Source of the DNA: Candidatus Poribacteria bacterium
GTDB lineage: Bacteria; Poribacteria; WGA-4E; WGA-3G
DNA length: 63,280 nt
Assembly: GCA_022822275.1 (NCBI GenBank)
Contig: JAJEBZ010000043.1
Span: 1-63,280 of the forward strand
Direction: 5' to 3'
In this document: in pieces, positions 35,709 through 53,664 of the stretch
Numbering within the stretch: the first letter of the stretch is position 1
Layout: each line of letters opens with the position of its first letter
The notes under the pieces: model-generated
Database searches by the model: none
Told to the model about the DNA's origin: nothing
What the model saw: only the letters and a program-made list of their open reading frames with translations
Position numbers and translations under genes: made by a program

Positions 35709-36071
35709 TTATATGGTAGCAGTAGAATTTACAGACCATTCAAATTCCCAAGTTTGTGAGGCAATAGCAAAAGGTTCGTACTGGCGTATTACCTTGTCAT
35801 GGTTAATACCTAAGGGATTTTCTTCTCTTTTAATTCCTTCCTCTAAGTGTTCAGAAGTAAGTAAAGAAGGCTTAGGTTGAGGAATTACATCTCCATGCTG
35901 TTTTGCGGTTTCTATCCAGCATAAGATGGCATCCCTTCCATTTGCAATCGCTTCGTCAATTGTGTCACCATCTGATATACAACCTGGCAAGTCAGGAAAT
36001 TCAATCAGATAACCTCCTCCTTCTTCTGTAGTTAATATATTTATTTTAGGTGGGTATCCTATTTCATTCAT
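35709..36071 (-). CDS. hicB: HicB family antitoxin
   Basis: GGGYLIEFPDLPGCISDGDTIDEAIANGRDAILCWIETAKQHGDVIPQP. Confidence 0.8.
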   Translation of the reverse strand: MNEIGYPPKINILTTEEGGGYLIEFPDLPGCISDGDTIDEAIANGRDAILCWIETAKQHGDVIPQPKPSLLTSEHLEEGIKREENPLGINHDKVIRQYEPFAIASQTWEFEWSVNSTATI

Positions 36072-36348
36072 GATTTTCCTCCAACTGATCGATCATTGTA
36101 ACAAGTTTTCGAATATATACCGGTTTTATTGGTCGGTGATCAGGAATAGTCAATTTAGTGCCTGAATCGTGTCGTAGTGTGACATGACTGCTTCCACGTT
36201 TTGGACGGTTTATTGATAAACCATATCGCCTCGCAAGTGTTTCAACATCTCTCATCCGCCAATCATTGCGCGGATTCTGTCTCATTCGATCCAATAATTT
36301 ATCTCGGCGCATAGAAATAAATCTCCACACAACATCAATTTCTTGCAC
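36064..36348 (-). CDS. hicA: HicA family mRNA interferase toxin
   Basis: RRYGLSINRPKRGSSHVTLRHDSGTKLTIPDHRPIKPVYIRKL. Overlaps hicB by 8 nt. The likely start is the internal MRRDKL at 36312. Confidence 0.7.
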   Translation of the reverse strand: MQEIDVVWRFISMRRDKLLDRMRQNPRNDWRMRDVETLARRYGLSINRPKRGSSHVTLRHDSGTKLTIPDHRPIKPVYIRKLVTMIDQLEENHE

Positions 36349-37067: not shown

Positions 37068-38558
37068 ATGAAAAATCAGATTGGACAAGTCTTTACCCCC
37101 ATCAAATGGGCAGAATGGCTCATCAGTAAATGGAATATCTTTGACGCGTGGCTTGACGGCGCACATCTATGCGACCCAACAGCAGGACAAGGTGTATTTG
37201 TCATAGCAATGCTGAAGATCGCGCAAAAAAATGGGGTACCTATTACTGCTGAACGTCTATCACGTCTAACCCTCATTGAGATGGTACCATCTCATCTTGA
37301 GCACTTTCAAAGAAAAGTTCAGCAAGACTACGGTATTAATTTTCCACCACCTCAAATCTATCGCCAAGATATAATCACTGAGACACATAAACGTCAATAC
37401 GACATCCTCATCGGCAACCCACCGTGGGCAAACTTTGGAGATTTACCCGACGGTTACAAAACTCAACTCAAACCCTATTTTATTAGGGAAGGACTTGTTC
37501 AGTATAAACAGCGGACATTGTTAGGTTCCTCTCGTGTTGATATAGCGGCATTGGTACTGAAGGTTGCGTTGGGAAAACTACTAAAACAGAATGGGACTGG
37601 TTATTTCTATCTACCCACATCTTTATTCTTTGGAGATGGTGCACATGCTGGATTTAGAAATTATCATGCAAATCAAAGAATGTTCACAATAGATTCTGTC
37701 CATGAATTTACGACAACCAAAGTGTTTAATGGGGTTAGTACCGCTTACTGCTGTGCAAAATTCCAAATTGATACTAAACAGAAATTCCCATTAACCTATT
37801 TCAAGGAAGTCGATGGAAAGTGGATAGAACATCAAGCAGGACCATTTAAAAATTCTACAGATCCGTGGCGGATCGTTCAAAACCTTGATGAAATCAATTT
37901 AGATGAAAAACTTGAGATTAAGTTATCTTTAGAGCAAAAACCGCGACAAGGTGTGAATACATGTGGGGCAAATCGTGTATTTATTTTTGACGGCAAACCT
38001 AAACATCTACCTGAAGAATTCCTGTTTCCACTTGCAACAAAAGAGATTTGGCGACAACATCAATCATCACCACACAAGTGGATTCTGCTGCCATACTCCA
38101 AGGATACGGGAAAACCGCTATCTTGGGATCAGATCAAAAAAATTGACACATTGAGAAACTATCTACAGAACTTTCAAGGGACTTTACAGCACAGAAAAGG
38201 TTCATTATTACGATCATTTATGAAAAATGGGAATTGGTGGGCATTACTTGGAGTTGGACCTTATGCCTTTGCACCATACAAAGTAATATGGCAAGCTTAT
38301 GGAAAAAACCATTTTACACCAATTGTGTTAAGCAGTATCAACGGGCAAATGTGGCAAGGCAATCAGGCGATGCACGCATTTATACCGTGCTGGCGCGAAG
38401 ACGATGCACATAGGATAAAGACAGCACTTGAAAATCCAGAGATTCCGATGCTTCTACAACAACTAAATGGGGCGGGAAAATGCAACTGGGCACAACCGGG
38501 GAAAATTAAGAAAATATTGTCCTTTAGTGAATCAGGATTTGGGAGTTTGTTCGGATAA
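37068..38558 (+). CDS. N6-adenine DNA methyltransferase, Eco57I/TaqI-like gamma class, with a C-terminal target-recognition region; no nuclease domain
   Basis: GQVFTP (motif X), CDPTAGQGVFVIA (motif I), DILIGNPPWANF (motif IV). Confidence 0.8.
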   Translation: MKNQIGQVFTPIKWAEWLISKWNIFDAWLDGAHLCDPTAGQGVFVIAMLKIAQKNGVPITAERLSRLTLIEMVPSHLEHFQRKVQQDYGINFPPPQIYRQDIITETHKRQYDILIGNPPWANFGDLPDGYKTQLKPYFIREGLVQYKQRTLLGSSRVDIAALVLKVALGKLLKQNGTGYFYLPTSLFFGDGAHAGFRNYHANQRMFTIDSVHEFTTTKVFNGVSTAYCCAKFQIDTKQKFPLTYFKEVDGKWIEHQAGPFKNSTDPWRIVQNLDEINLDEKLEIKLSLEQKPRQGVNTCGANRVFIFDGKPKHLPEEFLFPLATKEIWRQHQSSPHKWILLPYSKDTGKPLSWDQIKKIDTLRNYLQNFQGTLQHRKGSLLRSFMKNGNWWALLGVGPYAFAPYKVIWQAYGKNHFTPIVLSSINGQMWQGNQAMHAFIPCWREDDAHRIKTALENPEIPMLLQQLNGAGKCNWAQPGKIKKILSFSESGFGSLFG

Positions 38559-38716
38559 GACTTCTCTATCAACCGTTATACCAGGAGAAAACACAACTTA
38601 TGCAAAACGAACTCATGCTACTAAAAACTATACACACTCAATAAACACTTTTCACTTGTGAAATCATGCACAATGTGCTAAACTTATTCCAAAATACAAG
38701 GCAGGAGGAGAATTAA

Positions 38717-40024
38717 ATGGTTCAAGCCAAACCCCCACGTGCATTTCATGTCATGACAAAACCCATCGGACCCATCTGCAACTTAGATTGCGAATACTGC
38801 TTTTATCTGGATAAAGAGAAATTATATCCTGAAGCCCGTTCATTTCGTATGCAAGACGATACTTTGGAAAAATACGTCAAGCAGTATATTGAGGCGCAAC
38901 AAGTAAACGAAGTTACGTTTGCGTGGCAAGGTGGCGAACCTACACTGATGGGTGTGGATTTTTTCCGGCAAGTTGTCCGATATCAATATAAATATAGACG
39001 CCCCGGCATGACCATACAGAATACATTCCAAACTAACGCTACACTACTTGACGATGAATGGGGACAATTTTTCAAACAGAACAAATTCCTAATTGGCATA
39101 AGTATAGACGGTCCACCAGAGATACACGATAAATACAGGTATGACAAACGCGGTCGTCCTTCATCACATCAGGTAATACGCGGATTGGAAATATTACAGA
39201 AGCATAAGGTTGACTATAACGTGCTTTGTGTCGTCAACAGACACAACGCTGATTATCCTAAAGAGGTGTATTCATATTTCAAAGGTCTTGGCGTGGAGTT
39301 TATGCAATTTATTCCTGCAGTTGAGCATTTTGATGGCGAAAATGTGTCCCCCCGCTCTGTCACAGCAAAGCAATACGGGAAATTCCTATCCACTATTTTT
39401 GATGAGTGGGTGGTAAGTGACATTGGTAAAATATTCGTCCAAATTTTTGATGTCGCATTAGAAGCCTGGTTGGGGTATAACCCAAGTCTCTGTGTCTTCA
39501 ACGAAACGTGTGGCGATGCAATGGCTATTGAGCATAACGGTGATCTCTATTCCTGCGACCATTACGTCACACCTGACTACTTCATCGGCAACATTGAAGA
39601 GACCTCAATTGCAGACATGGTAGATTCACCGTTTCAACGCAAATTTGGCACTGATAAACGCGACACACTCCCAGAATATTGCAAGAAATGTGAAGTCAAA
39701 TTCGTCTGCAATGGGGGCTGCCCTAAAAATAGAATTATCAAGACACCAGATGGAGAGGAAGGTCTTAACTATCTCTGTGAGGGGTATAAGCATTTTTTCA
39801 AACACATTGATGAACCGATGAAACTCATGGCTGAGGCTCTTCAGGCAGGTAAACCCGCAAATAGTATTATACCCATTGTGCGGGAACGTCAACGAGGAAA
39901 AAGAAGAAGTACTCCTGTTAAAGCACAGACAATTTCAACCTTATCGCAGAAAGTTGGGCGAAACTCGCCTTGCCCGTGTGGCAGTGGACGAAAATACAAA
40001 CAGTGTTGTCTGAATAAAACATAG
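38717..40024 (+). CDS. Anaerobic sulfatase-maturating enzyme (radical SAM + SPASM) with a C-terminal SEC-C motif
   Basis: CNLDCEYCFY radical-SAM cluster, QGGEPTL, SPASM cysteines (CDHY.., CKKCEVKFVCNGGCPKNR), tail SPCPCGSGRKYKQCC. Confidence 0.85.
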   Translation: MVQAKPPRAFHVMTKPIGPICNLDCEYCFYLDKEKLYPEARSFRMQDDTLEKYVKQYIEAQQVNEVTFAWQGGEPTLMGVDFFRQVVRYQYKYRRPGMTIQNTFQTNATLLDDEWGQFFKQNKFLIGISIDGPPEIHDKYRYDKRGRPSSHQVIRGLEILQKHKVDYNVLCVVNRHNADYPKEVYSYFKGLGVEFMQFIPAVEHFDGENVSPRSVTAKQYGKFLSTIFDEWVVSDIGKIFVQIFDVALEAWLGYNPSLCVFNETCGDAMAIEHNGDLYSCDHYVTPDYFIGNIEETSIADMVDSPFQRKFGTDKRDTLPEYCKKCEVKFVCNGGCPKNRIIKTPDGEEGLNYLCEGYKHFFKHIDEPMKLMAEALQAGKPANSIIPIVRERQRGKRRSTPVKAQTISTLSQKVGRNSPCPCGSGRKYKQCCLNKT

Positions 40025-40046
40025 TCAGTACCTGAATTGATTACTT

Positions 40047-41291
40047 GTGAAGGAACACGTTACTACTATGCATCAAATACAGAGTGATCTGGTTTCCTTC
40101 CGTGAATTAGTTCCTGAAATCAGTGACACAGGTTATTTGACACACGCAATTTTCTATTACCCTGCAAAGTTCATACCGCAAGTCGTTAGGTATGCAATTA
40201 ACACTTACACAAAGGAAGGAGACTGGATTATTGATCCGTTTGCCGGTTCAGGAACAGTTGGATTAGAGGCATATTTGTGCAAACGCAACGCAGTATTACT
40301 TGACCTGAATCCGCTGTTGAATCATATTATCCCACTAAAAATATGTCCCTACAAAGAACGATTAAAAAAAGGACATTTATTTGAGCTGTTAGAAGAAATG
40401 GTGCAATCAGCACATCATTTCATTCCTTCATGGTCGAATGTGGATTATTGGTATCCCCCTGAAATGTTGGAAGTACTTTCAAAATACTGGGGTTACATCA
40501 AAAATATTGACCGGTCTCCATATACACAGATTGTTGAATCCGCATTGCTAAAAACCAGTAAACACTTCTCTTATGCAGAACACCGAATACCCAAACTATA
40601 CAGATCAAAACGGAAGAAAAGTTATATTGAAGACCTGCTGAAAACAGAATGGAAAGATAAACTGAAAGAGATGGTTTACACGGTATCTTTAAAAACCTTA
40701 CAAGACATCAACAACTTCATTAGCATAACACCAAAACACAAGAATAGGGTTGAGTACAAAGGGGGAATTGATTCATCCCACTATCAAGTCGGTCATGCAT
40801 GTGATGCACTAATTACATCACCGCCCTATCTACAAGCACAAGAATATATCCGCACAGCAAAAATGGACCTGTTCTGGTTAGGTTTTGAGGAAGAAGAAAT
40901 CCGAAAATTAGCACGACTTGAAATACCGTATCGTAAAGCAGATAGAATCATACAGGCAAAAACATTAGACTCTGTCAGAACCGTTTTAGAACGAAAAGAC
41001 CTTATAAACTTATTAGATTCCTATTTCTGCCACACCATCAACGCACTTGAAAATTCAATGAATTCTCTCAAATCTAACGCAACCGCCTGCATCTTCGTAG
41101 GCAACCCTTCAATTGATGGCATAAAGGTAGAAATCTGGAGAATTCTAATGGAATACTTTACACAACGTGGATTCATATTTGAGAAAGTCTATGAAGATAA
41201 AATAAAAACAAGACAACTGTTTGGGGCAAGGAAAAACAAGAACCCCGATGGAATGAAATCAGAATACTTACTGATATTAAGAAAGGCATAA
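40047..41291 (+). CDS. SAM-dependent N4/N6-type methyltransferase (motif I before motif IV, alpha-like order)
   Basis: YPAKFIPQVVRYAINTYTKEGDWIIDPFAGSGTVGLEA (motif I), then DALITSPPYLQAQEY (motif IV) ~200 aa later. Start is GTG 40047 or ATG 40068. Confidence 0.7.
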   Translation: MKEHVTTMHQIQSDLVSFRELVPEISDTGYLTHAIFYYPAKFIPQVVRYAINTYTKEGDWIIDPFAGSGTVGLEAYLCKRNAVLLDLNPLLNHIIPLKICPYKERLKKGHLFELLEEMVQSAHHFIPSWSNVDYWYPPEMLEVLSKYWGYIKNIDRSPYTQIVESALLKTSKHFSYAEHRIPKLYRSKRKKSYIEDLLKTEWKDKLKEMVYTVSLKTLQDINNFISITPKHKNRVEYKGGIDSSHYQVGHACDALITSPPYLQAQEYIRTAKMDLFWLGFEEEEIRKLARLEIPYRKADRIIQAKTLDSVRTVLERKDLINLLDSYFCHTINALENSMNSLKSNATACIFVGNPSIDGIKVEIWRILMEYFTQRGFIFEKVYEDKIKTRQLFGARKNKNPDGMKSEYLLILRKA

Positions 41292-41300
41292 AGGAGATTT

Positions 41301-42812
41301 ATGGATAACACCAGGCCGAACATATTGCTAATCACAAGTGACCAACAACATTGGAACACATTGGGATGTCTAAACCCAGAAATTCAGACACCCCATTTAG
41401 ATGCGATGGCACAGGATGGTACCCTCTTCCATCGCGCCTACTGTCCAAACCCAACATGCACACCAACCCGCGCCTCCATCATCACAGGAAAGTATCCCAG
41501 CCAACACGGTGCATGGTCCCTCGGAACAAAGCTCTTGGAAAATGAACATACCGTCGGTGAAGATTTCATAGACGCAGGCTACAGGACTGCTCTTGTTGGA
41601 AAGGCACATTTCCAACCCTTGCGCGGTTCTGATGAATTCCCATCTCTGGAATCTTATCCTATTCTACAAGATTTGGATTTCTGGAGAAATTTCAGCGATC
41701 CGTTCTATGGATTCGAGCATGTGGAACTGGCGCGGAATCATGCCGATGAAGCACACGTCGGTCAACATTACGCAATATGGATGGAAGAAAAAGGCTGCAC
41801 AAATTGGCGTGACTATTTTTCACCTCCTACTGGCAACGCTAAGGGACAATACAGAAAATGGCCAATCCCTGAAGAATTTCACTATGATACCTGGATTGCA
41901 GAACGCACAAACGCACTCATGGAACAATATCAGCAGAACGGAGAGAATTTTTTCTTGTGGGCAAGTTTCTTCGATCCGCACCCGAAATACCTCGTGCCTG
42001 AACCGTGGGACACCATGTATGATCCAGAAGCATTAACAGTTCCATCTGTAACAGAAGGTGAACATGACAATAATCCGCCGCATTTCCAGATGACACAACA
42101 ACGCAAACCGGACTTCTCCGAATGGCGTGAAACAGGAAAAGGTATTCACGGCTTCAGGTCCCACCTACGAGATAGGGATGAACTTGCAAAGGACATTGCT
42201 GTCTATTACGGCATGGTGAGTCTGATGGATAAGTATATCGGTGAAATCTTGGGAAAACTTGATGAACTCGGTCTTGCGGATAACACGCTTGTAGTCTTCA
42301 CATCTGACCATGGACACTTCTATGGACAGCATGGACTCATTGCAAAAGGGGCATTTCATTACGAAGATGTGATACGCGTGCCTTTTCTCGTACGGTATCC
42401 GGGTGTTGTTCCTGCAGGAAAACAATCTGACGCATTGCAGACATTAGTAGATTTAGCTCCAACTTTCCTCAGTGCTGCTGGGATTGACATTCCACTACAG
42501 ATGACTGGCGTAGACCAGACATCTGTTTGGTCCGGACAGGAAGAGCATGCTCGCGACCATATCATCGTTGAAAACCACCATGAACCAACAACTGTTCACG
42601 TAAAGACTTATGTGGATGACCGGTATAAACTTACCGTTTATTACAATCGGGATTATGGAGAGCTGTTTGACATGCATGAGGATCCGGGTGAAATCAATAA
42701 TCTATGGAATTCACCTGAACATGCTGAATTAAAAGCAGAGTTAGTGATGAAACTATTGTTCGCGGAAATGGGAAAAGAGTCGCTGCCTGTTCCGAGAACA
42801 TCAGGAGCATAA
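41301..42812 (+). CDS. Cys-type sulfatase (formylglycine-dependent), no obvious signal peptide
   Basis: NILLITSDQQ, CTPTRASIITGKYPSQHG (C-x-P-x-R), FTSDHGHFYG. Confidence 0.9.
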   Translation: MDNTRPNILLITSDQQHWNTLGCLNPEIQTPHLDAMAQDGTLFHRAYCPNPTCTPTRASIITGKYPSQHGAWSLGTKLLENEHTVGEDFIDAGYRTALVGKAHFQPLRGSDEFPSLESYPILQDLDFWRNFSDPFYGFEHVELARNHADEAHVGQHYAIWMEEKGCTNWRDYFSPPTGNAKGQYRKWPIPEEFHYDTWIAERTNALMEQYQQNGENFFLWASFFDPHPKYLVPEPWDTMYDPEALTVPSVTEGEHDNNPPHFQMTQQRKPDFSEWRETGKGIHGFRSHLRDRDELAKDIAVYYGMVSLMDKYIGEILGKLDELGLADNTLVVFTSDHGHFYGQHGLIAKGAFHYEDVIRVPFLVRYPGVVPAGKQSDALQTLVDLAPTFLSAAGIDIPLQMTGVDQTSVWSGQEEHARDHIIVENHHEPTTVHVKTYVDDRYKLTVYYNRDYGELFDMHEDPGEINNLWNSPEHAELKAELVMKLLFAEMGKESLPVPRTSGA

Positions 42813-42898
42813 TTCATTGATGGTAGTTATACATTGTGGTATACTATTACGGAAGTTTTACAATATAAGGCAATTAACCCATACTGCATTTAGAATCT

Positions 42899-43633
42899 TT
42901 GTTGCTTTTAGGAGATGGTATGATGATGCGAAAAATACAGTCTGCACCGACAATCTACTATCCCGAATCAGACGGTAAACCTATGGCAGAAACAGATAAA
43001 CATCGCGATTTAATGGTAGCTTTCATTCAGATGCTGCAATACTATTTCAGGAATAAACCGGTTTATGTTTCGGGAAACCTATTGATGTATTACGAACAAG
43101 GTAATATCAAGAAATGTGTTGCGCCGGATGTCTTCGTCGTTTTTGGTGTATCCAAGAAACGCCGCCGCACCTATCTAACATGGGAAGAAGGGAACACACC
43201 AGATTTTGTTCTGGAACTCGCAAGTCCAAGCACTTTTAGAGAGGATATGCGTAGGAAAAAGGATCTCTATGCGTCTGTTCTCAGAGTCAAGGAATACTAT
43301 ATTTACGATCCTTATGGTGAGATAAACCCGTATTTTATTGGGTTTCGGTTAATAGATGGCGAGTATCAAGAGATAGATTTTATCAATGAGCGTTTAGTGT
43401 CCGAGGTGTTAGATTTGGAACTCGGTGAACATAATGGTATTTTGAGGTTATATGACCCACGCGCTGAACAATGGCTGCAACCCCCACCAGAACGGGTAGC
43501 AGACGCTGAAGAACGCGCACAAACTGCTGAAGAACGCGCACAACAAGAAGCTGCTGCCAGACAAAACCTTGAAGCAGAACTTGCTAAAGCACTATTGGAA
43601 ATTGAACAACTACGTGAAAAGTCGGGTAGTTAA
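42899..43633 (+). CDS. Uma2 (DUF820) family endonuclease with a C-terminal coiled-coil tail
   Basis: YPESDGKPMAETDKHRDLM, APDVFVVFGV, PDFVLELASPST (PD-(D/E)xK-like), then AEERAQTAEERAQQEAAARQNLEAELA. Confidence 0.8.
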   Translation: MLLLGDGMMMRKIQSAPTIYYPESDGKPMAETDKHRDLMVAFIQMLQYYFRNKPVYVSGNLLMYYEQGNIKKCVAPDVFVVFGVSKKRRRTYLTWEEGNTPDFVLELASPSTFREDMRRKKDLYASVLRVKEYYIYDPYGEINPYFIGFRLIDGEYQEIDFINERLVSEVLDLELGEHNGILRLYDPRAEQWLQPPPERVADAEERAQTAEERAQQEAAARQNLEAELAKALLEIEQLREKSGS

Positions 43634-43692: not shown

Positions 43693-44517
43693 CTAATATC
43701 TGCGTTTCCAGTGCCAACTATCACTTCCAGAGATTAGCGGACGAATGTCTTCGGGGAGTGTCTCAATAAAATCTGGGCTCACCTCATTGCCAGGCCATTC
43801 ACGTACCATCGGCGGTGTATAACCAGCAATTAAGATAACCCTTTCCTTATCGCTTCGTATAGCAGTGGTGCTGTGAATAAGTGCTTCCGCAAAAAGTAAC
43901 ACTGAACCCGCAGATGCTTCTACTTGATGGATGAGTTTATCATCAGAGAGTGCAGCTTCGATCATCTCATTCTGTTTCCATGTCAAGCGGTGGCTGCCCG
44001 GAATCACACAAGTTCCTCCGTCATCAGGCCCTACATCAGTCAGATATGCCAACGTTTTCACAAAGATACAATGAAATTTATCCTGTTCCATATAGGTACC
44101 CCAACCGTGCTTTGTGCCACGATGGAAACCGGTTGGGTTGTAACGTCGGTTGTGAAGTTCCTCTAAATCTTGATCTGGATTCCTTCTGTTGATAATAGCC
44201 TCTGTCTCTTCAAGGCGGACTTTACCACCGACGACCTCCTCCACAAGCGGAACAAGTTTAGGATGGGCAGCATATTCCAGCAACGCAGGATCGTATTCAA
44301 CGAGATTCCCCATGTGTGCATGGTGTTCACCACGCCAATTGCAATATACTCTTGTGCTGTCAAGATTCTCAGACGCTTTAATTCTGTAAAGCGCGTCCTT
44401 CATTCGCTCAATTTCATCAGTGGTAAGGACGTTCGCCAACAGAACAAACCCATATATATCAAAGTGCAACCTTTGTGCAGATGTGAGATGCACATTTCCA
44501 TTGTCCATAGCCATCAC
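43693..44517 (-). CDS. PhyH-family Fe(II)/2OG oxygenase-like protein with HRG in place of HxD
   Basis: LTSAQRLHFDIYGFVLLANVL, GFHRGTKHG, VIPGSHRL, EALIHSTTAI. Confidence 0.7.
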   Translation of the reverse strand: MMAMDNGNVHLTSAQRLHFDIYGFVLLANVLTTDEIERMKDALYRIKASENLDSTRVYCNWRGEHHAHMGNLVEYDPALLEYAAHPKLVPLVEEVVGGKVRLEETEAIINRRNPDQDLEELHNRRYNPTGFHRGTKHGWGTYMEQDKFHCIFVKTLAYLTDVGPDDGGTCVIPGSHRLTWKQNEMIEAALSDDKLIHQVEASAGSVLLFAEALIHSTTAIRSDKERVILIAGYTPPMVREWPGNEVSPDFIETLPEDIRPLISGSDSWHWKRRY

Positions 44518-44555: not shown

Positions 44556-45371
44556 TTACCATACGGATGTTCTTTTGATATTTCCCCAAGTTGTTGCAAG
44601 TTTCCCTTGCGGGTCAACATCAAGATTCAAAGGTTCACTCCCTTCATAGATCAGCAAATCATCTACATAACCCGGTGAAAAAATTCCATAGACATGAAAA
44701 GCAACCCATTGCACAGTTGGATTTACTGCAGCATTCCGAAAAGCAAGCCCATTATATCCTCTATCTTTTAGAGCTTGGTCTCTATCGTTTCCAATGTACA
44801 TTTCAAATTCACTTTTGTCAACATTGGCAACTACACGCACGTATTTCCATGTATCCGTTTCAAAATCGTCAATAGGCACCCATGTAGCACCGTTATAGAG
44901 TCGTACTGTGTTATTGTCCCAATTTATATACACCCCACCATCATTTACCCTGATACTATCAGAAGAAACGACTTTGAAATTGAATGAACGGCCTCCACTT
45001 GCAATATAAACCCAAAATTCAACTGAAATAACAGGATTATCGGTTTCTATCGGTACACCAATTGTATCATCATTGGCACCCCCTAAAATTGCAAGAGATT
45101 TATTATCGGTCTTAACTTGTTCAGTTGACACTTCCATCATCTCTGCCAGTACTTCCCAATCATTAGGTGGATTTCCAACAGTGTCTTTCTCAAACCCAGT
45201 TTGTAAAAACACCTCTTGTGCATTTACCGTTGATATAACGTAAAAACTCAAAGTAAATAGCACAAAGAGTATTGATACCACCACAAGATGAGTCGGTCTT
45301 GCGGTGGTTGTTTCATTTCTAATGCGAACATGATTTTTATACATTGTCTCCTCCTTGAGAGTCATTTTCAA
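44556..45371 (-). CDS. Secreted/anchored LamG-like (concanavalin-type) domain protein, paralog A
   Basis: N-terminal hydrophobic anchor, then ..VISVEFWVYIASGGRSFNFKVV..GGVYINW..TWKYVRVVANV..YVDDLLIYEG. Jelly-roll-like pattern. Confidence 0.55.
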   Translation of the reverse strand: MKMTLKEETMYKNHVRIRNETTTARPTHLVVVSILFVLFTLSFYVISTVNAQEVFLQTGFEKDTVGNPPNDWEVLAEMMEVSTEQVKTDNKSLAILGGANDDTIGVPIETDNPVISVEFWVYIASGGRSFNFKVVSSDSIRVNDGGVYINWDNNTVRLYNGATWVPIDDFETDTWKYVRVVANVDKSEFEMYIGNDRDQALKDRGYNGLAFRNAAVNPTVQWVAFHVYGIFSPGYVDDLLIYEGSEPLNLDVDPQGKLATTWGNIKRTSVW

Positions 45372-45408: not shown

Positions 45409-46200
45409 TTATCTAAATGGGGATTGTTTTTTGACTTGTCCCCAAAAAGTTGTCAGTTTTCCTTTTGGTTCAACAGGTGTTAGAGATGGTGGATCCGCAC
45501 CTTCGTAAACGAATAGGTCATCAACGAATCCTTGTGCGACTGTGGAATAAACATGAAATGAAACCCACTGTGCAGTAGGATTTTCAGCGGCATTCCGGAA
45601 AGCAAGTCCTGAAATCGGATCAGCTAACAAAACTGCTTCACGATCATCACCAACATAGTAATCAAAAACACTATTGGTAGCGTCAGCGACAATACGCACA
45701 TATTTCCAAGTTTCAAAAGGGAAGTCACCAACTGCGACCCAAGCGGACCCGTCGTATAATCGGGTTGCGTTGGCATTCCAGTTGAGATAGACACCGCCAT
45801 CGTTAACGCCAACCGCATCATTTGTAACTACTTTGAAATTAAATGACCTACCAGCACCTTTGACGTATGCCCAAAATTCTACTGAGATGATGGGGTTTTC
45901 TGTTTCTATTGCCACCCCTACATTATCGTCATTGTCTCCCAAAATACCGAGTGCTTTCTCACCATTTTTAACAGTGTCGGCTGACACGACTATCTGAGAC
46001 CCTCTTACCGCCCAATCTGTTGGCGCAGCACCGAGATCGAATTCCTCAAATCCGGTTTCAACTAAGACCGTCTGAGCAGTTGTAGTCTGTACCAGAAATA
46101 GACAAAAAACGATTAAAACTAAAAAAGACATTGAAAAAACAGAGTTGTGGTATTTCCCACATGTTAATGTTGACATATTTCGATCAAGATATTGGTTCAT
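45409..46200 (-). CDS. Secreted/anchored LamG-like domain protein, paralog B
   Basis: Collinear with paralog A (IISVEFWAYVKGAGRSFNFKVV..GGVYLNW..TWKYVRIVADA..FVDDLFVYEG). Confidence 0.55.
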   Translation of the reverse strand: MNQYLDRNMSTLTCGKYHNSVFSMSFLVLIVFCLFLVQTTTAQTVLVETGFEEFDLGAAPTDWAVRGSQIVVSADTVKNGEKALGILGDNDDNVGVAIETENPIISVEFWAYVKGAGRSFNFKVVTNDAVGVNDGGVYLNWNANATRLYDGSAWVAVGDFPFETWKYVRIVADATNSVFDYYVGDDREAVLLADPISGLAFRNAAENPTAQWVSFHVYSTVAQGFVDDLFVYEGADPPSLTPVEPKGKLTTFWGQVKKQSPFR

Positions 46201-46209
46201 TTGATCCTC

Positions 46210-46971
46210 CTAAATTAAGGTTATAAGTTTTTCGTTATTAGTGATTGAATTTACTAAACAATAATAGATGTATCTATAACTATTAATTTTACCTGAATAT
46301 ACAGGATAAGAAATTTGAATTTCCAACCATTCTATTCCCACGCACGCCCTGAGACCTTCAACAAACACTTGAAAACTATTCGATCTATTACGACTCGGTT
46401 TCATGTGATGTGCTATGTTTTGTGCGACTTCAATTTTTGGAATTTTTTCAACATAATCTCGAGTTTTTATTAGTAAACGTTCTAATGCTTCGTACGTCCC
46501 ACCAGTAATCGCATCGGGATCTCGGTACTTTTTCTGATATTGAAGGTTTTTGGATACACTGGGATATGCTTCATGTAATGCCTCTATGTCACCAAAAAAC
46601 CATGCCTCTAATTCCTCTATGGCTAATCGATTCACTACTTGAAAATCACCGTTTGGAAGAGTCCTTGATTTTGTCACAAGACCTGATTGATGCGCTGCAT
46701 TTTCTAATTGTGTCTTGAGTTCTTGGCAATTTTTTCGATCTTCATCAATTAGCACCACAATCCGCCAATCAGCTGGCATCCATTTTGAGTAACCTTTCAA
46801 CCGTGCCGAAAGTTTTTTTAGCAAATCTGGTTTTCCGTTAAAAACATGAAAGTTATAACTGACATCATCGGGAAGTATCTTAGGTAGTATTAACTTTAAT
46901 GTGACTTCGGCAGAACGTTCTTCCAATAGGAATTCAATATGCATGTTTTTATACCTTTGGACCTCCTGCAT
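46210..46971 (-). CDS. DUF4276-like protein (possible Toprim-like effector), partner of the upstream ATPase
   Basis: [52 protein letters not shown]. Start is either 46971 (23-nt overlap with the ATPase) or MHIEF at 46944 (4 nt after its stop). Confidence 0.6.
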
Positions 46972-48157
46972 TAGTCAAAGGATCTCCGAATTCAAAGTAC
47001 CCTTCCATCCAAAGTTCCCCCAACTTCGCCCCTTCGTCCAAAAACTCCTTGATTCCCTGCATGTCAGAGGTGCGTTTACATACCGTAAATCCGTTATCAT
47101 CTCGATAAAGCACCCATACCTCATTTGCACGAAATTCGTTAACAAAGTGCGGCGAATGGGTTGTAATCATGAGTTGGGACAATGCTGTAACCTTATGACA
47201 TTCCTCAGCTAATCCGGATAACAAGCGAGGGTGTAGATAGTTTTCAGGTTCTTCAATACCAATTAACTGCGGTGGTTCTGGGTCATATAATAAGGTCAAA
47301 TAAGACAACATTTTCAGCGTTCCATCAGAAGCAAACTTTGCCAAAATGGGATGATCAAACGGTGCGTCTTTTATTTGTAACAATAACCTTCCATCTGCCA
47401 TGATTTCAGCATCTACTTTCTCTAAACGAGGGACTCTTTGAGATAATATTGATAGAATCTTCTTCAAACGCGGTTGATATTGCTCTTTTAAATATTGAAT
47501 AACATTTGGCAAATTATCACCTGATTCGGATAATCTTTCTTGAGGTCCGGCTTCAGGAACACCTCGTGTCGCATCTGCAGAAAGATAGGAAAGGTGCCAT
47601 CCTGTAATAAAGCGACGCAATGCACTGACACGTGGATGCCTCGCTAATTGTCCCAATGTGCTTACAGCAAGCATTGATGGGTCATCAAGTTGTTCATTGA
47701 TTCGCTCTTCTCCTTCATCAGGTGTTTCACCACCTATTACACGACCAGCACCTTCTTGAAAATCAAGAAAGCGAAAAGGTTTTCCTCTACTACCACGTCG
47801 CCATTGCAACCATTCAGCATCAACATAAGGTCCTTTTTTGCCTTCATAAATAGATAAATGGTAAGTGATAATTGGTGTCTTAGGTTTTTCACGATATTTC
47901 AGTTCAAATTCAATTGGTTCATTGCTTCCGCGTGTCCTTAACTCTTTAAAACGACCTCTCTTGTCCCATGCTCTTCGCATCCCCTCCGTGAAACATTCTG
48001 CAAGAAATGCAAAGACATCAAAAAGCGTTGATTTTCCGCTACCGTTTGAACCTAAAAAGGCTGTTAATGGTGTGATTTTTTTTAATTCTACATCACGTAA
48101 TGCGCGATAATTTTTCACTCGTAATGATTCAATGCGAGGTACAGTTTGTTGTGGCAT
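46949..48157 (-). CDS. ABC-type (AAA_21/AAA_15-like) ATPase
   Basis: [28 protein letters not shown] (Walker A), [13 protein letters not shown] (Walker B / D-loop), MITTHSPHF (H-loop). Confidence 0.8.
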
Positions 48158-48206: not shown

Positions 48207-48986
48207 TTACGGCATCCAGATATTCCACTCTCCTTTTTTCTGCCATGCGCGGCAATCATAGCACAGGCACATAAAACGAATTGCGAAACGAGGCGAAGTA
48301 TCAACATTCATCGTACCAGCATGCGGCAATAGGTGATGAAAAAAGAGGACATCTCCTTGTTTAGCGACAACTTCCATCGGTTCACCTAAATCCAACTCTG
48401 TAAACTGGGCACGCATATCATGAACATGGTCAGAAAACTTTGGATTCTTTTTCCGAAATGCCCGAATCCGTTCTGGTCCTTCAGGCCAAATCATTGTCGT
48501 GCCTTGATGCTGCTTTGCATCAGTAAGATATGTTAAGCTGGTCGCTCGGAATGTGCCAGGGTCCAATCGTAAATCCCGAAAGTCTCCATCGAGATGGGGT
48601 GTAGGAGGTTTCCACTTCGCATTTATTGGAAATTGATTAATTGCCCAAATACCATCAGGTTCATGACTCTTACAGTGTGGGATAGACGGATATTTTTGAG
48701 CAAGTTGTTTTAGGACATCAAGATAATCTGGTGTGCAACATGCTAACACGTCTGGATGTGTTAAACCGTATAGTTCAACCCGCTTCCCTTTTGCGAGTTT
48801 TTCTATATAGAAACCTGTGAGAAATGGCCGTTTGAAGTGTTGCCATGTATCAGGAGCATCAGCATCCATACCCAGCGAATGCCACATCGCTTGTTCCGCT
48901 TTTTGGATAGTGTCAATCGGAATCAAACCAGAAAGTAGTAAAAATCCCTGTTCGTCAAAGTGCCTTAGTTGTGAAGTAGATAGCAT
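48207..48986 (-). CDS. PhyH-family Fe(II)/2OG oxygenase
   Basis: LSTSQLRHFDEQGFLLLSGLI, PHLDGDF (HxD), FFHHLLPHAGTMN. Confidence 0.7.
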   Translation of the reverse strand: MLSTSQLRHFDEQGFLLLSGLIPIDTIQKAEQAMWHSLGMDADAPDTWQHFKRPFLTGFYIEKLAKGKRVELYGLTHPDVLACCTPDYLDVLKQLAQKYPSIPHCKSHEPDGIWAINQFPINAKWKPPTPHLDGDFRDLRLDPGTFRATSLTYLTDAKQHQGTTMIWPEGPERIRAFRKKNPKFSDHVHDMRAQFTELDLGEPMEVVAKQGDVLFFHHLLPHAGTMNVDTSPRFAIRFMCLCYDCRAWQKKGEWNIWMP

Positions 48987-50175: not shown

Positions 50176-53100
50176 CTATTTCGCTAATGACTCATAATAG
50201 TTATCAACAAGTTTGCGGTATTCAGGTGGGACATCTTCTTTTGCAACTTGCGTCAATTGCTTTTTCTCTTGAAGTTGATTCAAACGTTCCTCTAAAGCGG
50301 ATTCTAACTTCTGTAAAGACCGTATTGCAAGTTCATAATTCGGTAAGGGACGTGAACGATTACTTCTTGATGGCGGCTGCATGGAATCCAGCATTTCAAG
50401 CCACAACTCTTTTATCTCGCGATACGATTCAACACCACCACGCGCCATTTCAGTATCGTTTTCTGTTTGCCCTTCCTGTCCGGGTTGTTGTCCCTCCTGT
50501 CCGGGTTGTTGTCCTTCCTGAGCATTTTGCATGGCTTCTTGGGCTTCTTGCATACGTTCTGTCAATTGTTGATTCTGCTCAGCAAGTTGTTGTTCACGTT
50601 GCTGTTGTTCTTCGCTCTGTTCTTGTCCTTCCATCCCCTCTTGTTCACGCTGCATATCTTGCATCTGCTCTTCAAAGGTTTCAAGTTGTTCAAGGGCAGC
50701 TTCAAGTTGCTCTTCTTCGGTTTGTGCCATATTGGCCCTCGCTTGTTGAAGATCCGCTTGTGCTTGTTCAAGTGTTTCAACAACTTCCTGTTGATTCAAA
50801 TCAGCAGATTGTAAACTACGCCATTGCAATGCACGCTGTGCTGTTGCCATATCCTCTGCAGTCTGTTCTTGTGAAAGTCTTTCAGAGGCATCAGCAACAT
50901 TTTCAGCAGCTTCAGGATTTTCCTGATTCAACTGTTCTTGAAGATTATCCAAGTTCTCCTCAAGTGACTCTAAGTCACGTTGAAGTTGCCGCTGTTGATT
51001 AGCAAGTTCGGAGGCTTGCCGATAATCCTCAGTACTCATCCCACCTTGTTGCTGAGACCGATTTCTCAGTTCTTGTGTCTGCTGTTGTACTTGAGATTGT
51101 TCCTCAGTCATCTGTTGAAGTTGCTGTGCTGCTCTTTCTAATGCGTTATCTGTAAATTCAGCAGATGCTTTTTCAAGTTGTTCAATCGCTTCCTCAAGTC
51201 TTTCTTCAGCCTTTTCACCCTTTGCAGCACTCATTTGGGGTTGCTGCTGTTGCATCCCTTGCGATGCTTGTTGCATCTGTTCACTCGCTTGCTGCATGGA
51301 CTGTCCTGCTTGTGCAAGACGTTGTTGTTGTGGATCTTGTGCATTACCCTGCATTTGACCGAGTTGTTGCGACATCTGTTGTGCTTGTTGTGACAACTGC
51401 CCCTGTTGTTGACTGTTCTGTTGCATATCGCTTGGAGAGGGTTGATCTTGTCTACCCATCTCTTGACTCTGTTCATTCAGATTCTGTTGTTGTTCCAGCA
51501 TTTCACGTGCTTGGTCCAACATCTGCTGCGTCTGTTCCTGCAATTGCTCATCAAGTTCTTCTTGGTTCTGCTCCAACTCGTTCTGCAAGTCCTCCAATTC
51601 CATCTCAAGATTTTCAGCCATCTGAGGTTGGTTTGACCTTGCTTGCTGCAGAACTTTGGGCATTTCAAGATCCACTTTAATCAGCAATTCAAGTGCAGCT
51701 TGTTCAGGTGGAATTGCTTCCATAGGTTTGGTAGCATTTAACTCATCCATCGCTTCACCCATTTTGTCAACTGCCTCCTCAAGGTTCATCATAATTTCTG
51801 GAGGTATAGATTGTTCCTGCATCTGCATGCTGAAGTTATCTACTACCTCTTGCGTTTTATCCTTGACTTCACCCTGTTTTTCCGCAGTTTTCTTAACATC
51901 TGATGCAAATTCTTCTGTAGCAATTTCCGGTTGGCTGTTAACATGAGTCCAAGTTTCCCGAATCACCTGCTTCTGAAGAGCGATCAATCCTGGCATAGGG
52001 TTAGGCATGCCTTCCATATCCATAGGTTCTTGATCCTCATATCTCCGATTGAAAGGTTTGACCTCTATGAAGTAAATATCACTTCTTGCTTCACTCGGTC
52101 CTGTTAACGTATTATTGTCAACCGCATGTGCATAGTAAGAAATGACTTGACCAGGTTCAATGTCAAATTCCTCCAGATAAAACGTATAGGTCCCGCTGCG
52201 CACCTTTTTACCTGATTGCATATCTGTTGCCTCTACTGCAAACTCACCTGTCGCTTCTAATGCAACCTCTTTCAATTCCCCCGCACCTATGCGATACTTC
52301 AGATTAAGCTCTTCAACGCCAAAATCATCCGTAGCCTCAGCAACGATTTTAACCTCTTCCAGTTTTGTCGCTTTCACATCGCGCCCGGGTTCCTTAACAA
52401 CCACTTTCGGGGGTTTATCAGGTATCGCTTTGATAGAATATTCAATTGGAATTTCATTGTGGAATTCATCAATACAGAATAGGTCTACAGTGTATTTGCC
52501 ATTTTCGGTGACTTCAATTGTTGTCGTGAGTGTATTTCCATCTGCAATAGTCATCTCAAGAGAATTTGTAGAAGCGGTATCACTTTCACCAACATCTTCA
52601 GTTGTAGCAGCTTTCTTCTTACTTTGCATGGTGAACGTGGCTTTCTGGATTGCCTTATTCGTAGTAAATCTAATTTCTGCTGAAGTGCCGACAATCGCCT
52701 TAATATCGCCACTACCTTGCTGAACAACTGGGGATAAATCTGTATATTCAGGATAGGTATAAGAAACAGAAACATCCTCTACACGCGGCATCTCAAAGAC
52801 TTCTACAGTAAAACTTTCAGATGTCGTCTCATTCGCTACAACGTAATACTCCATCTCCTTTTCAATATTGAAAATCTCATAAGCAAAACCCCGTTTGTCA
52901 TCAGGATTCTGCAACATATTGATTTCCTGCTTGCTACCTTCGTCTTCTGCCGTTGGTGGATTGTCCTTATCATAGTAGGCCAAGACAACCTTATCTGCAT
53001 CTTTACCTGTTACAGTTACTTTAATGGGTAAACTCTTGCCGCGAAGGATACGAGCGTCCCCTGGGGTAACATCAACCTTAGTTGTCATTATTGGGTCGGT

Positions 53101-53664
53101 CTTTTCCCACGGCACAAGCAACCGCATCAGACTCGTCTGAGTTTCTGTTGGAAAAAGAAGTGTTAGTAAACCACAAGCAGCAATCACTAATGCAGCAATG
53201 CCGACATACTTGCGTGTTCTACTGTGGTCAACCGTGGCTTTGAAATCAATGCCTTTAATACGATCAACGGTATCCGTAAGCAAACGTTGAAGCATGTGTG
53301 CCTCAATCGGATCATCAGTCTCTCTTGAGCCAAATTGGACAGCACTCACGAGACGATCTTCAAGGTCCGGATGACTCTGTTCAACGTTAAGTGCAACATC
53401 CCGAAGACTCAGCGCAGCTCTAATCGGAACAATCAAGTGTCTATACAAAAGGTAAATAGTTGCACCAACGATCCCTACCAACAATACGATCCGAACCGCA
53501 CTTGGAAGCGGCATCAACCAATCTACAATTGAACCCCCTACCAGAATTGCCAACAATCCTATCAGGACTATCGCAGCCCCAGTCCAGAACAGGCTTCGTT
53601 TCCACACACGCCGCGCAGCTAATATCTTCGTTTGTAGTTCTGTATATTCTTCTCTTCTTTCCAT
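50176..53664 (-). CDS. DUF4175-like membrane-anchored protein with a ~450 aa Gln/Glu-rich coiled-coil region
   Basis: Two N-terminal TM segments, a beta-rich middle and a Q/E low-complexity region. The C-terminal PPEYRKLVDNYYESLAK recalls proteins I remember from Bat/MoxR-vWA type operons; this is a family recollection and is unverified. Confidence 0.6.
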   Translation of the reverse strand: MERREEYTELQTKILAARRVWKRSLFWTGAAIVLIGLLAILVGGSIVDWLMPLPSAVRIVLLVGIVGATIYLLYRHLIVPIRAALSLRDVALNVEQSHPDLEDRLVSAVQFGSRETDDPIEAHMLQRLLTDTVDRIKGIDFKATVDHSRTRKYVGIAALVIAACGLLTLLFPTETQTSLMRLLVPWEKTDPIMTTKVDVTPGDARILRGKSLPIKVTVTGKDADKVVLAYYDKDNPPTAEDEGSKQEINMLQNPDDKRGFAYEIFNIEKEMEYYVVANETTSESFTVEVFEMPRVEDVSVSYTYPEYTDLSPVVQQGSGDIKAIVGTSAEIRFTTNKAIQKATFTMQSKKKAATTEDVGESDTASTNSLEMTIADGNTLTTTIEVTENGKYTVDLFCIDEFHNEIPIEYSIKAIPDKPPKVVVKEPGRDVKATKLEEVKIVAEATDDFGVEELNLKYRIGAGELKEVALEATGEFAVEATDMQSGKKVRSGTYTFYLEEFDIEPGQVISYYAHAVDNNTLTGPSEARSDIYFIEVKPFNRRYEDQEPMDMEGMPNPMPGLIALQKQVIRETWTHVNSQPEIATEEFASDVKKTAEKQGEVKDKTQEVVDNFSMQMQEQSIPPEIMMNLEEAVDKMGEAMDELNATKPMEAIPPEQAALELLIKVDLEMPKVLQQARSNQPQMAENLEMELEDLQNELEQNQEELDEQLQEQTQQMLDQAREMLEQQQNLNEQSQEMGRQDQPSPSDMQQNSQQQGQLSQQAQQMSQQLGQMQGNAQDPQQQRLAQAGQSMQQASEQMQQASQGMQQQQPQMSAAKGEKAEERLEEAIEQLEKASAEFTDNALERAAQQLQQMTEEQSQVQQQTQELRNRSQQQGGMSTEDYRQASELANQQRQLQRDLESLEENLDNLQEQLNQENPEAAENVADASERLSQEQTAEDMATAQRALQWRSLQSADLNQQEVVETLEQAQADLQQARANMAQTEEEQLEAALEQLETFEEQMQDMQREQEGMEGQEQSEEQQQREQQLAEQNQQLTERMQEAQEAMQNAQEGQQPGQEGQQPGQEGQTENDTEMARGGVESYREIKELWLEMLDSMQPPSRSNRSRPLPNYELAIRSLQKLESALEERLNQLQEKKQLTQVAKEDVPPEYRKLVDNYYESLAK

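Follow-up and report, generated by a model that had tools for sequence, protein, structure and literature searches.

The subject of this analysis is a pair of adjacent genes in a 63-kb stretch of DNA from a bacterium of the Candidatus Poribacteria, a sponge symbiont; the whole stretch is referred to below as the window. The two genes are intact, co-directional open reading frames (ORFs) on the minus strand, one encoding an ABC-type ATPase and the other a protein of the DUF4276 family, and the sequences of their products make the pair, with near certainty, a core member of HEC-01, a candidate anti-phage system catalogued in PADLOC. A role in defence is likely. Since the family, the assignment of its domains and its candidate function have all been published and are held in a standard annotation database, the pair is an already known candidate defence system and not a discovery. 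What the analysis adds is modest: strict synteny and residue statistics for the family, a hot spot between hsdS and hsdR in Poribacteria, a conserved lineage free of restriction-modification (RM) genes, and a private stop-loss tail on the second protein.

Identification of the pair

HEC-01A, a protein of 402 amino acids, was recognized as an ABC-type (AAA_21/AAA_15) ATPase from its ORF (46949..48157, minus strand) and from Pfam and PADLOC matches. It matched the PADLOC HEC-01A model PDLC04182 at 2.5e-168 (558 bits), with amino acids 7-392 aligned to positions 2-404 of a profile of 406, and its partner, HEC-01B, matched PDLC04202 at 5.8e-87, with amino acids 10-211 of the longest ORF aligned to positions 1-201 of 204, as well as Pfam DUF4276 at 7e-29. 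The HEC-01 model of PADLOC does not require embedding in Hma or another DNA-modification system. With the models PDLC04144 and PDLC04143 the matches run crosswise, the ATPase matching a 'HEC-01B' model (3.3e-119) and the DUF4276 protein a 'HEC-01A' model (7.8e-35); the A and B labels have therefore apparently been swapped in one PADLOC sub-model pair.

An earlier reading of the same DNA, made from its sequence only, had described two ORFs within 46210-48157 as a split OLD/PARIS-like candidate conflict system with a DUF4276-like small partner. Both frames are present on the minus strand (46949-48157 and 46210-46971), as are all the ATPase and partner motifs that it quoted; the Pfam match bears out the family of the partner, the PADLOC run that it had suggested returned the two HEC-01 models at the E values given above, and the idea of a split conflict system agrees with PADLOC HEC-01, with Payne et al. 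(bioRxiv 10.1101/2024.01.29.577857), with the Menshen paper (Nucleic Acids Research, 2025) and with the PARIS paper. The novelty of the pair does not stand, as it is already catalogued as HEC-01 and DUF4276 has already been called Toprim in publications. The sequence-only reading also knew of no experimentally defined function for DUF4276; this holds for its biochemistry but is out of date for genetic evidence, since HEC-01 has been tested against phages and mad3 and mad4 have been deleted.

Gene boundaries

The conserved HEC-01B gene, for a predicted Toprim-like metal-dependent nuclease, occupies 46330..46944 on the minus strand (205 codons, MHIEF...CVGIE). The longest ORF at this position is larger (46210..46971, minus strand, 253 amino acids, ATG at 46971) and overlaps the ATPase gene by 23 nt; homologues run from MHIEF to about CVG, for which reason this ORF was rejected as the gene model. 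The start at MHIEF (ATG at 46944) is that of most homologues and also of the Pfam and PADLOC profiles, and the same spacing of the pair is found in most Poribacteria loci (a tblastn gap of 10 nt). Between the TAA stop codon of the ATPase gene (46951-46949) and this homology-supported ATG lies a spacer of 4 nt, AAAC (46945..46948, minus strand). Judged by homology, the two genes abut with no true overlap. The overlap that had been proposed is thus confined to the longest ORF, and the tight coupling of the two genes that had been proposed with it remains plausible; the length of about 245 amino acids suggested for the partner has to be replaced by a conserved length of 205, the remainder being a stop-loss tail.

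Related loci from a genome scan are labelled L001, L002 and so on, L001 being the closest genome and L100 a near-identical metagenomic contig. In a DNA alignment, codon 206 of HEC-01B is TGG in the window (46329-46327), where the ancestral codon is the TAG of L100 and L001, and homologues terminate 0-6 residues past CVG. Because L100 and L001 keep the TAG and do not otherwise differ in the spacer beyond it, the last 39 codons (46210..46329, minus strand) are read as a single-base stop-loss read-through. They cross the AT-rich intergenic spacer up to a TAG at 46212-46210, which falls within the Shine-Dalgarno sequence of the gene that follows, and in the AlphaFold2 model the tail is disordered, with a predicted local distance difference test score (pLDDT) of 25-33. 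On the alignment, the TAG-to-TGG change is private to this assembly and may reflect either genuine variation between strains or a fault in the assembly. It seems extremely unlikely that the window copy is a relic in decay and that the tail is a first sign of pseudogenisation. The private stop loss and the lack of an RM partner within the window would fit such decay, but both frames are intact and covered over their full length by the family hidden Markov models (HMMs), all catalytic motifs are present, the ratio of nonsynonymous to synonymous substitution rates (dN/dS) against the closest relative, L001, is 0.12 for the ATPase and 0.15 for the DUF4276 protein, and the single-base difference is equally explicable by an error in assembly.

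Promoters and terminators were scanned for between 43.4 and 54.8 kb; the counts were at chance level and so do not define operon boundaries.

The ATPase, HEC-01A

The ATPase matched Pfam AAA_21 (2e-26) and AAA_15 (3e-21), and its PADLOC matches to families other than HEC-01 (AriA, mad3, AbiLi and Old) were far weaker or partial. Its closest solved relatives in sequence are the OLD-family nuclease 6p74 (1.6e-7), PtuA, retron ATPases and Rad50; the N-terminus has weak RecF/SMC similarity, the RecF matches being limited to the P-loop region. Conservation was measured over 78 homologues, in which the Walker A, SDG, Walker B/D-loop and H-loop motifs are invariant or nearly so. The Walker A motif or P-loop, GSNGSGKST (amino acids 36-44; 48026..48052, minus strand), has the form G-x-N-G-S-G-K-S-T in 77-78 of the 78 homologues. 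The ABC signature-like motif S-D-G (amino acids 277-279; 47321..47329, minus strand) is invariant in 79 of 79 aligned sequences, and the H-loop TTHSP (amino acids 332-336; 47150..47164, minus strand) has T333, H334 and S335 invariant. The Walker B and D-loop region (amino acids 298-310; 47228..47266, minus strand) follows the family consensus hhGhEEPENxLHP, with E302, E303, P304, E305, N306, H309 and P310 invariant throughout the 79 sequences. Where Walker B normally has Asp, all 79 sequences have Glu (Glu302 in the window protein), so that the substitution characterizes the family and is no defect; the codons of E302 and E303 lie at 47252-47257.

The DUF4276 partner, HEC-01B

Residue conservation in DUF4276 was assessed over 111 diverse clusters less than 50% identical to each other, and the counts are given over 112. 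Three acidic clusters stand out. The first, E8-E9 (46918..46923, minus strand), lies directly past strand beta1, at the position of the Toprim 'conserved Glu'; of the 100 diverse representatives whose sequence includes the N-terminus, 99 have E8. The second is the DxD motif D67-E68-D69 (46738..46746, minus strand) at the end of strand beta3, with D67 in 110/112, D69 in 105/112 and a variable middle residue. The third (amino acids 110-119; 46588..46617, minus strand) comes after strand beta4; E113, W115 and G118 are each found in 112/112, E111 in 109/112 and D119 in 107/112. AlphaFold2 modelled HEC-01B well over residues 1-204, with a beta-alpha-beta-alpha-beta-alpha-beta core and, after it, a C-terminal half made of helices; the strands are beta1 (2-7), beta2 (29-34), beta3 (60-65, or 60-68 in the core model) and beta4 (from 103). 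The core of 125 amino acids was re-predicted in isolation (pLDDT 84.6), and searched again, because the helical half might dominate Foldseek. In both models E8 follows immediately after beta1 and D67xD69 stands at the end of beta3. Strands and helices alternate in the way expected of the three-layer alpha/beta Toprim fold, which would also call for a four-stranded parallel sheet in the order 2-1-3-4. An early Glu followed by a DxD, in the manner of Toprim nucleases, had been noticed in the sequence alone, and both the placement of these residues in the model and their near-invariance across the diverse clusters uphold it. A Glu after beta1 with a DxD after beta3 is said to have been set out by Aravind and co-workers in 1998 as the arrangement that defines Toprim.

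The searches for the fold gave no significant Toprim match with either Foldseek or HHalign. Foldseek against the PDB returned nothing at E <= 1e-3, either for the full HEC-01B model or for the 125-residue core, and no Toprim entry was among the top 50 matches of either; the full model also found nothing at E <= 1e-3 in BFVD. The top matches were generic three-layer alpha/beta proteins (a phosphotransferase system (PTS) EIIA, lumazine synthase and a designed Rossmann protein), whose sheets we take to be of the 2-1-3-4 type in SCOP. Profile searches of PDB sequences with close and with diverse DUF4276 alignments yielded nothing relevant, and among 103 diverse DUF4276 proteins scanned against Pfam at E <= 5 none matched a Toprim family. 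HHalign of the diverse DUF4276 alignment with the Toprim domain of P2 Old gave a weak match at P = 0.016, with a score that was reached in 4 of 200 column shuffles, and P weakened to 0.054 when OLD homologues from viral contigs, 33-38% identical, were added. The alignment itself is in register, pairing E8 with E398 and D67xD69 with D453xD455. A homologue search with the P2 Old Toprim fragment returned only three near-identical fragments, and phmmer with the same fragment missed even solved OLD structures.

Because neither Foldseek nor HHalign gave a significant Toprim match, the fold assignment rests on motifs, topology and publications. In the Menshen paper, DUF4276 and RloB are assigned to the Toprim superfamily and DUF4276 is equated with Mad4 of the MADS system, and Payne et al. 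describe HEC-01B as TOPRIM-like, with a metal site that matches BpOLD. The Toprim assignment of DUF4276 is accordingly supported by motif placement, topology and these two published structure comparisons, our own searches being no proof.

As a side observation, the only secondary Pfam match to recur was DUF3226, found weakly in 5 of the 103 diverse DUF4276 proteins (best E 6e-4); the literature search turned up no mention of DUF3226.

It is very unlikely that DUF4276 is not a nuclease at all, its acidic site serving some other metal chemistry (nucleotide or second-messenger hydrolysis, or phosphotransfer) or the protein acting as an adaptor only, with a convergent resemblance to Toprim. The generic flavodoxin-like or Rossmann-like folds that were all Foldseek returned, the non-significant HHalign, Pfam and PDB-profile links to Toprim, and the recurrence of DUF3226 would suit such a protein. 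The near-invariant Glu and DxD in the arrangement taken to define Toprim, the register shared with P2 Old, the two independent structure comparisons that name the domain Toprim, and an ATPase partner of OLD/AriA type, which parallels known ATPase-Toprim systems, all argue for a nuclease.

Distribution and evolution of the pair

A word-indexed search found 3657 homologues of HEC-01B, and exhaustive searching with a profile brought 1801 clusters at 50% identity with E <= 1e-3, 282 of them with E <= 1e-30; Candidatus Poribacteria supplied the nearest homologues and the best genome matches. The genome scan, with one genome per species, gave at least 517 loci. Synteny was judged on the best 80 of these, and the counts of genomic context given below cover 82 loci, namely the best 80 and two from viral contigs. 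The ATPase gene lies directly upstream of the DUF4276 gene, on the same strand, in 80/80 loci; the sequence-only reading had asked whether the two families keep together, and in these loci they do. These loci span Poribacteria, Elusimicrobia, Planctomycetota, Acidobacteria, cyanobacteria (Microcoleus) and Methanosarcinales. Distances between ATPases and between DUF4276 proteins are correlated (Mantel r = 0.77; maximum of 0.13 in 999 permutations). The two genes are an obligate, co-diverging unit that is inherited together.

Both genes are under strong purifying selection, with dN/dS of 0.02-0.05 for the ATPase and 0.08-0.15 for the DUF4276 protein, even with saturated synonymous sites. Between phyla, archaea included, identity is 55-60% for DUF4276 and 67-77% for the ATPase.

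Comparison with related systems

The window pair is closest to HEC-01 itself, which is short for Hma-embedded candidate 01 and belongs to PADLOC-DB v2; Payne et al. defined it on pairs lying inside Hma, each an ABC ATPase accompanied by a TOPRIM protein. Both window proteins match the family HMMs over their full length, in the same order of ABC ATPase and then TOPRIM-like DUF4276, and relatives of the pair are likewise often embedded in DNA-modification systems. The window copy differs in standing outside Hma or RM genes, in a row of PPK2, PhyH and secreted-protein genes, and in the 39-residue stop-loss tail of its B protein.

In the MADS system of Pseudomonas aeruginosa, Mad3-Mad4 also combine an AAA_15/21 ABC ATPase with a DUF4276 protein within an RM-like operon, and both genes add to phage resistance. 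Deletion of mad3 or mad4 reduces MADS phage defence, and deletion of mad5 is lethal, except in combination with a deletion of mad2 or mad3. The window ATPase matches mad3 models (8e-28 in PADLOC and 1e-31 in NCBIfam), but it reaches 110.6 bits against a cut-off of 420 for the NCBIfam MAD3 equivalog, the window DUF4276 protein matched only HEC-01-labelled PADLOC models at E <= 0.1, and the mandatory mad6-8 were not found among the genes that flank the pair. Membership of MADS was rejected on the sub-threshold MAD3 score and the lack of mad6-8 among the flanking genes.

PARIS resembles the pair in its split design, in which an AAA_15/21 ABC ATPase goes with a small protein that is encoded by its own gene and has an acidic site of Toprim type, and in two genes that co-evolve as a unit; a link to anti-restriction, as in PARIS, is plausible for HEC-01. 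The PARIS paper has the AriA ATPase as partner of the TOPRIM nuclease AriB; it lists Mad3-4 and AbiL among ABC-ATPase plus TOPRIM systems, and its tree contains AAA_21/AAA_15 plus DUF4276, the same Pfam families as those of the window pair. The differences are that the effector is DUF4276 here and DUF4435 (AriB) in PARIS, neither DUF4435 nor AriB being matched by the window pair at E <= 0.1 in Pfam and PADLOC; that the AriA HMM covers only amino acids 173-340 of the ATPase (4.5e-28), whereas the HEC-01A match is full length; and that PARIS is common on phage satellites, whereas the HEC-01 family is nearly absent from viral contigs. PARIS membership was rejected for want of a DUF4435 and because the AriA match is partial.

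OLD nucleases and GajA of Gabija share the combination of an ABC ATPase with Toprim-type chemistry; the OLD-family 6p74 is the nearest solved relative of the window ATPase, and the Glu and DxD of HEC-01B fall in register with those of the Toprim domain of P2 Old. In OLD and GajA both domains are fused in one polypeptide, whereas here they are split, with a stop codon between the ORFs; the similarity of the OLD nuclease part to HEC-01B is not significant in sequence or profile, and Gabija has the helicase GajB, whereas no UvrD-like helicase lies among the window neighbours. The unfused domains and the lack of a helicase among the neighbours led to the rejection of OLD/Gabija membership. The ATPase also matches the AbiLi HMM (3.3e-27), and RloB, the AbiLii partner, is, like DUF4276, a recently recognised Toprim relative, but it is not DUF4276. 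The classic case of an effector led by an ABC ATPase and embedded in a type I RM operon, where the HEC-01 family usually lies, is PrrC; it is, however, a single polypeptide with an anticodon-nuclease domain.

Genomic context

Counting one family of type I RM only, hsdS lies upstream and hsdR immediately downstream of the pair in 42 of the 82 loci, across phyla and including one of the two viral contigs. About 30 Poribacteria loci carry the pair inside a type I RM operon, typically in the order hsdM, Schlafen/AlbA_2, a nucleotidyltransferase (NTase)-substrate-binding gene with an NTase gene (MNT/HEPN-like), hsdS, bSEFIR/TIR, HEC-01A, HEC-01B and hsdR; the embedded genes vary between loci, and hsdR begins a few tens of bases past the stop codon of the partner. 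The slot between hsdS and hsdR in Poribacteria is a hot spot, which collects Schlafen-like, MNT/HEPN-like and bSEFIR genes besides HEC-01. In L012:1346-11720 and about 30 other Poribacteria loci, L013 and L024 among them, the stretch from hsdM to hsdR holds several embedded genes together, namely those for a Schlafen/AlbA_2 plus HATPase_c_4 protein, an NTase-substrate-binding/NTase (MNT/HEPN-like) pair partly fused to hsdS, a bSEFIR/TIR protein and the HEC-01 pair; in L014, L023, L026, L027, L033 and L037 the embedded genes are kept and hsdM and hsdR are lost or reduced to short remnants. Other loci adjoin RM genes of type III or type IIG, or genes that resemble mad3 or mad8, and some have no PADLOC-labelled neighbours.

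A second, stand-alone arrangement is shared by the window and L001, L002, L003, L005, L007, L008 and L041, that is, by eight species-level Poribacteria genomes. Its genes are co-directional with short intergenic gaps, in the order DUF4175 (1162 amino acids), PPK2, PhyH, HEC-01A, HEC-01B, two secreted paralogues of about 265 amino acids and PhyH, with a sulfatase on the opposite strand. Both arrangements occur together in two genomes (L001 with L023, and L003 with L024), and the stand-alone copies are therefore a distinct paralogous lineage, called group A here. The window copy lies outside any defence island. The sequence-only reading had asked whether the families are enriched in such islands; about half of the related loci lie in type I RM operons, and the window copy does not.

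Within group A the ATPase is 84-91% identical, where the flanks are 73-77% identical. The window ATPase is 87% identical to that of L001:6826-7998, with a synonymous divergence (dS) of 0.68, where the flanks have 92-97% amino acid identity and dS of 0.17-0.54; compared with the more distant group-A genomes it is 90-91% identical, with flanks at 73-77%. As the divergence of the ATPase does not track that of its flanks, these sequence comparisons suggest allele exchange at a fixed locus.

Several observations speak against a role in defence. There is no hsdM, hsdS or hsdR anywhere in the 63 kb, and PADLOC gave no match for the neighbouring PPK2, the two PhyH, the two secreted paralogues and DUF4175. 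The ATPase, at 67-91% identity across phyla, is unusually conserved for a defence gene, and the family has only 2 matches in 2.9 million viral contigs. Payne et al. found that HEC-01 gave no protection against any phage tried. A later cold-seep study had the opposite outcome, one cloned HEC-01 representative having protected E. coli B from one or more of the phages T7, T5 and T4, and the two published phage tests thus disagree.

A rival reading regards the pair as a non-autonomous accessory of DNA-modification systems, like Mad3-Mad4 in MADS, that needs flanking RM or Hma genes for sensing or licensing, the window copy then being an orphan that is inert or has some other role. We consider this unlikely. 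The location of the pair between hsdS and hsdR in 42 of 82 loci points that way, as do the discovery of HEC-01 inside Hma and its failure to protect when tested alone (Payne et al.), the coexistence of embedded and stand-alone copies in the genomes of L001/L023 and L003/L024, and the requirement for mad3 and mad4 in full MADS defence; the lethality of mad5 deletion, relieved by loss of mad2 or mad3, implies a functional coupling to RM-like genes. An obligate dependence fits less well with the HEC-01 cassette that protected E. coli B when cloned alone (cold-seep study), with the approximately one half of related loci that lack detectable type I RM genes, or with the retention of the stand-alone lineage in eight species-level genomes under strong purifying selection, and the analogy with MADS is weakened by the score of 110 bits against the MAD3 equivalog cut-off of 420.

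A different possibility, which appears quite improbable, is that the pair serves the cell in maintaining its nucleic acids and not in immunity, in the manner of RecF and RecR, or has been domesticated within the Poribacteria PPK2/PhyH/secreted-protein row. RecF, an ABC ATPase, and RecR, a Toprim protein, are a known pairing. The weak RecF/SMC similarity of the ATPase N-terminus would be in keeping with such a role, and so would the high identity of the ATPase in group A relative to its flanks (84-91% against 73-77%), its dN/dS of 0.02-0.05, the near absence of the family from viral contigs, and the fixed co-directional position, with short gaps, among non-defence genes in eight genomes. Against this, the RecF matches are confined to the P-loop region, and RecR carries zinc-finger and helix-hairpin-helix (HhH) modules that HEC-01B lacks. 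RM operons are, moreover, the dominant context across phyla, membership of the PADLOC family is unambiguous, and the patchy, cross-phylum distribution, archaea included, at 55-60% identity for DUF4276 and 67-77% for the ATPase, indicates horizontal spread and not housekeeping.

Proposed mechanism

The explanation preferred here, which we hold with moderate confidence, is a defence system in which the ATPase acts as sensor and the DUF4276 protein as nuclease; it draws on analogy with PARIS, OLD/Gabija and PrrC. An oligomer of the ATPase would sense infection and hold the DUF4276 nuclease inactive. A phage cue would then alter the nucleotide state of the ATPase, and so free or activate the nuclease, which would cut nucleic acid (tRNA or DNA) and abort the infection. 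In PARIS, AriA reportedly releases AriB, which cleaves tRNA. Given the usual place of the HEC-01 family between hsdS and hsdR, plausible cues would be an anti-restriction protein or a restriction complex that is failing. The sensor and effector roles and the abortive outcome are inferred by analogy with these systems, and the trigger and the substrate named here are guesses.

Two features of the family are of practical use. The near-invariant Glu/DxD/ExE...D site of DUF4276 marks the residues worth mutating, and the natural RM-free lineage is usable as a test of autonomy. This lineage might represent a HEC-01 module that departed from an RM operon and then became fixed, whether as part of the core immunity of sponge symbionts, sensing independently of RM, or through recruitment to a role in the cell, a scenario to which we give little credence; if true, it would be a natural experiment on embedded ATPase-Toprim modules turning autonomous. 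For a genome scan, the main value of the result is negative, the locus being one to be filed as a known candidate system.

Other genes in the window

The two tandem secreted paralogues of about 265 amino acids (44556-45371 and 45409-46200, minus strand) start 9 nt past the pair, in the row that is kept in the eight Poribacteria genomes. Their N-termini have hydrophobic, signal-like segments, neither Pfam nor PADLOC gave a match, and they evolve fast, with 48-88% identity compared with 83-97% in the flanks. The pair and the secreted paralogues are flanked by two PhyH-family dioxygenases (43693-44517 and 48207-48986). The DUF4175 membrane protein of 1162 amino acids (50176-53664, minus strand), whose C-terminal half is a very long, Gln/Glu-rich, low-complexity and coiled-coil-like region, is 73-96% identical in all group-A loci that reach far enough.

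The conflict-type genes nearest to the pair are a Uma2/PDC-S03-like gene, two DNA methyltransferase genes with a radical-SAM/SPASM gene, and HicAB. The first encodes a putative Uma2-family endonuclease that matches PDC-S03 (42899-43633). It is followed, with increasing distance from the pair, by an N6/N4 DNA methylase (40047-41291), a radical-SAM/SPASM protein (38717-40024) that contains a SEC-C motif and weakly resembles pVip, and a fragment of an Eco57I/type IIG-like methylase (37068-38558). Together these genes (37068-43633) form a loose conflict-type cluster, of which the methylase and Uma2 genes are shared with L001 only. A HicB-like antitoxin and a HicA toxin (35709-36348, minus strand) lie about 10 kb from the HEC-01 pair.

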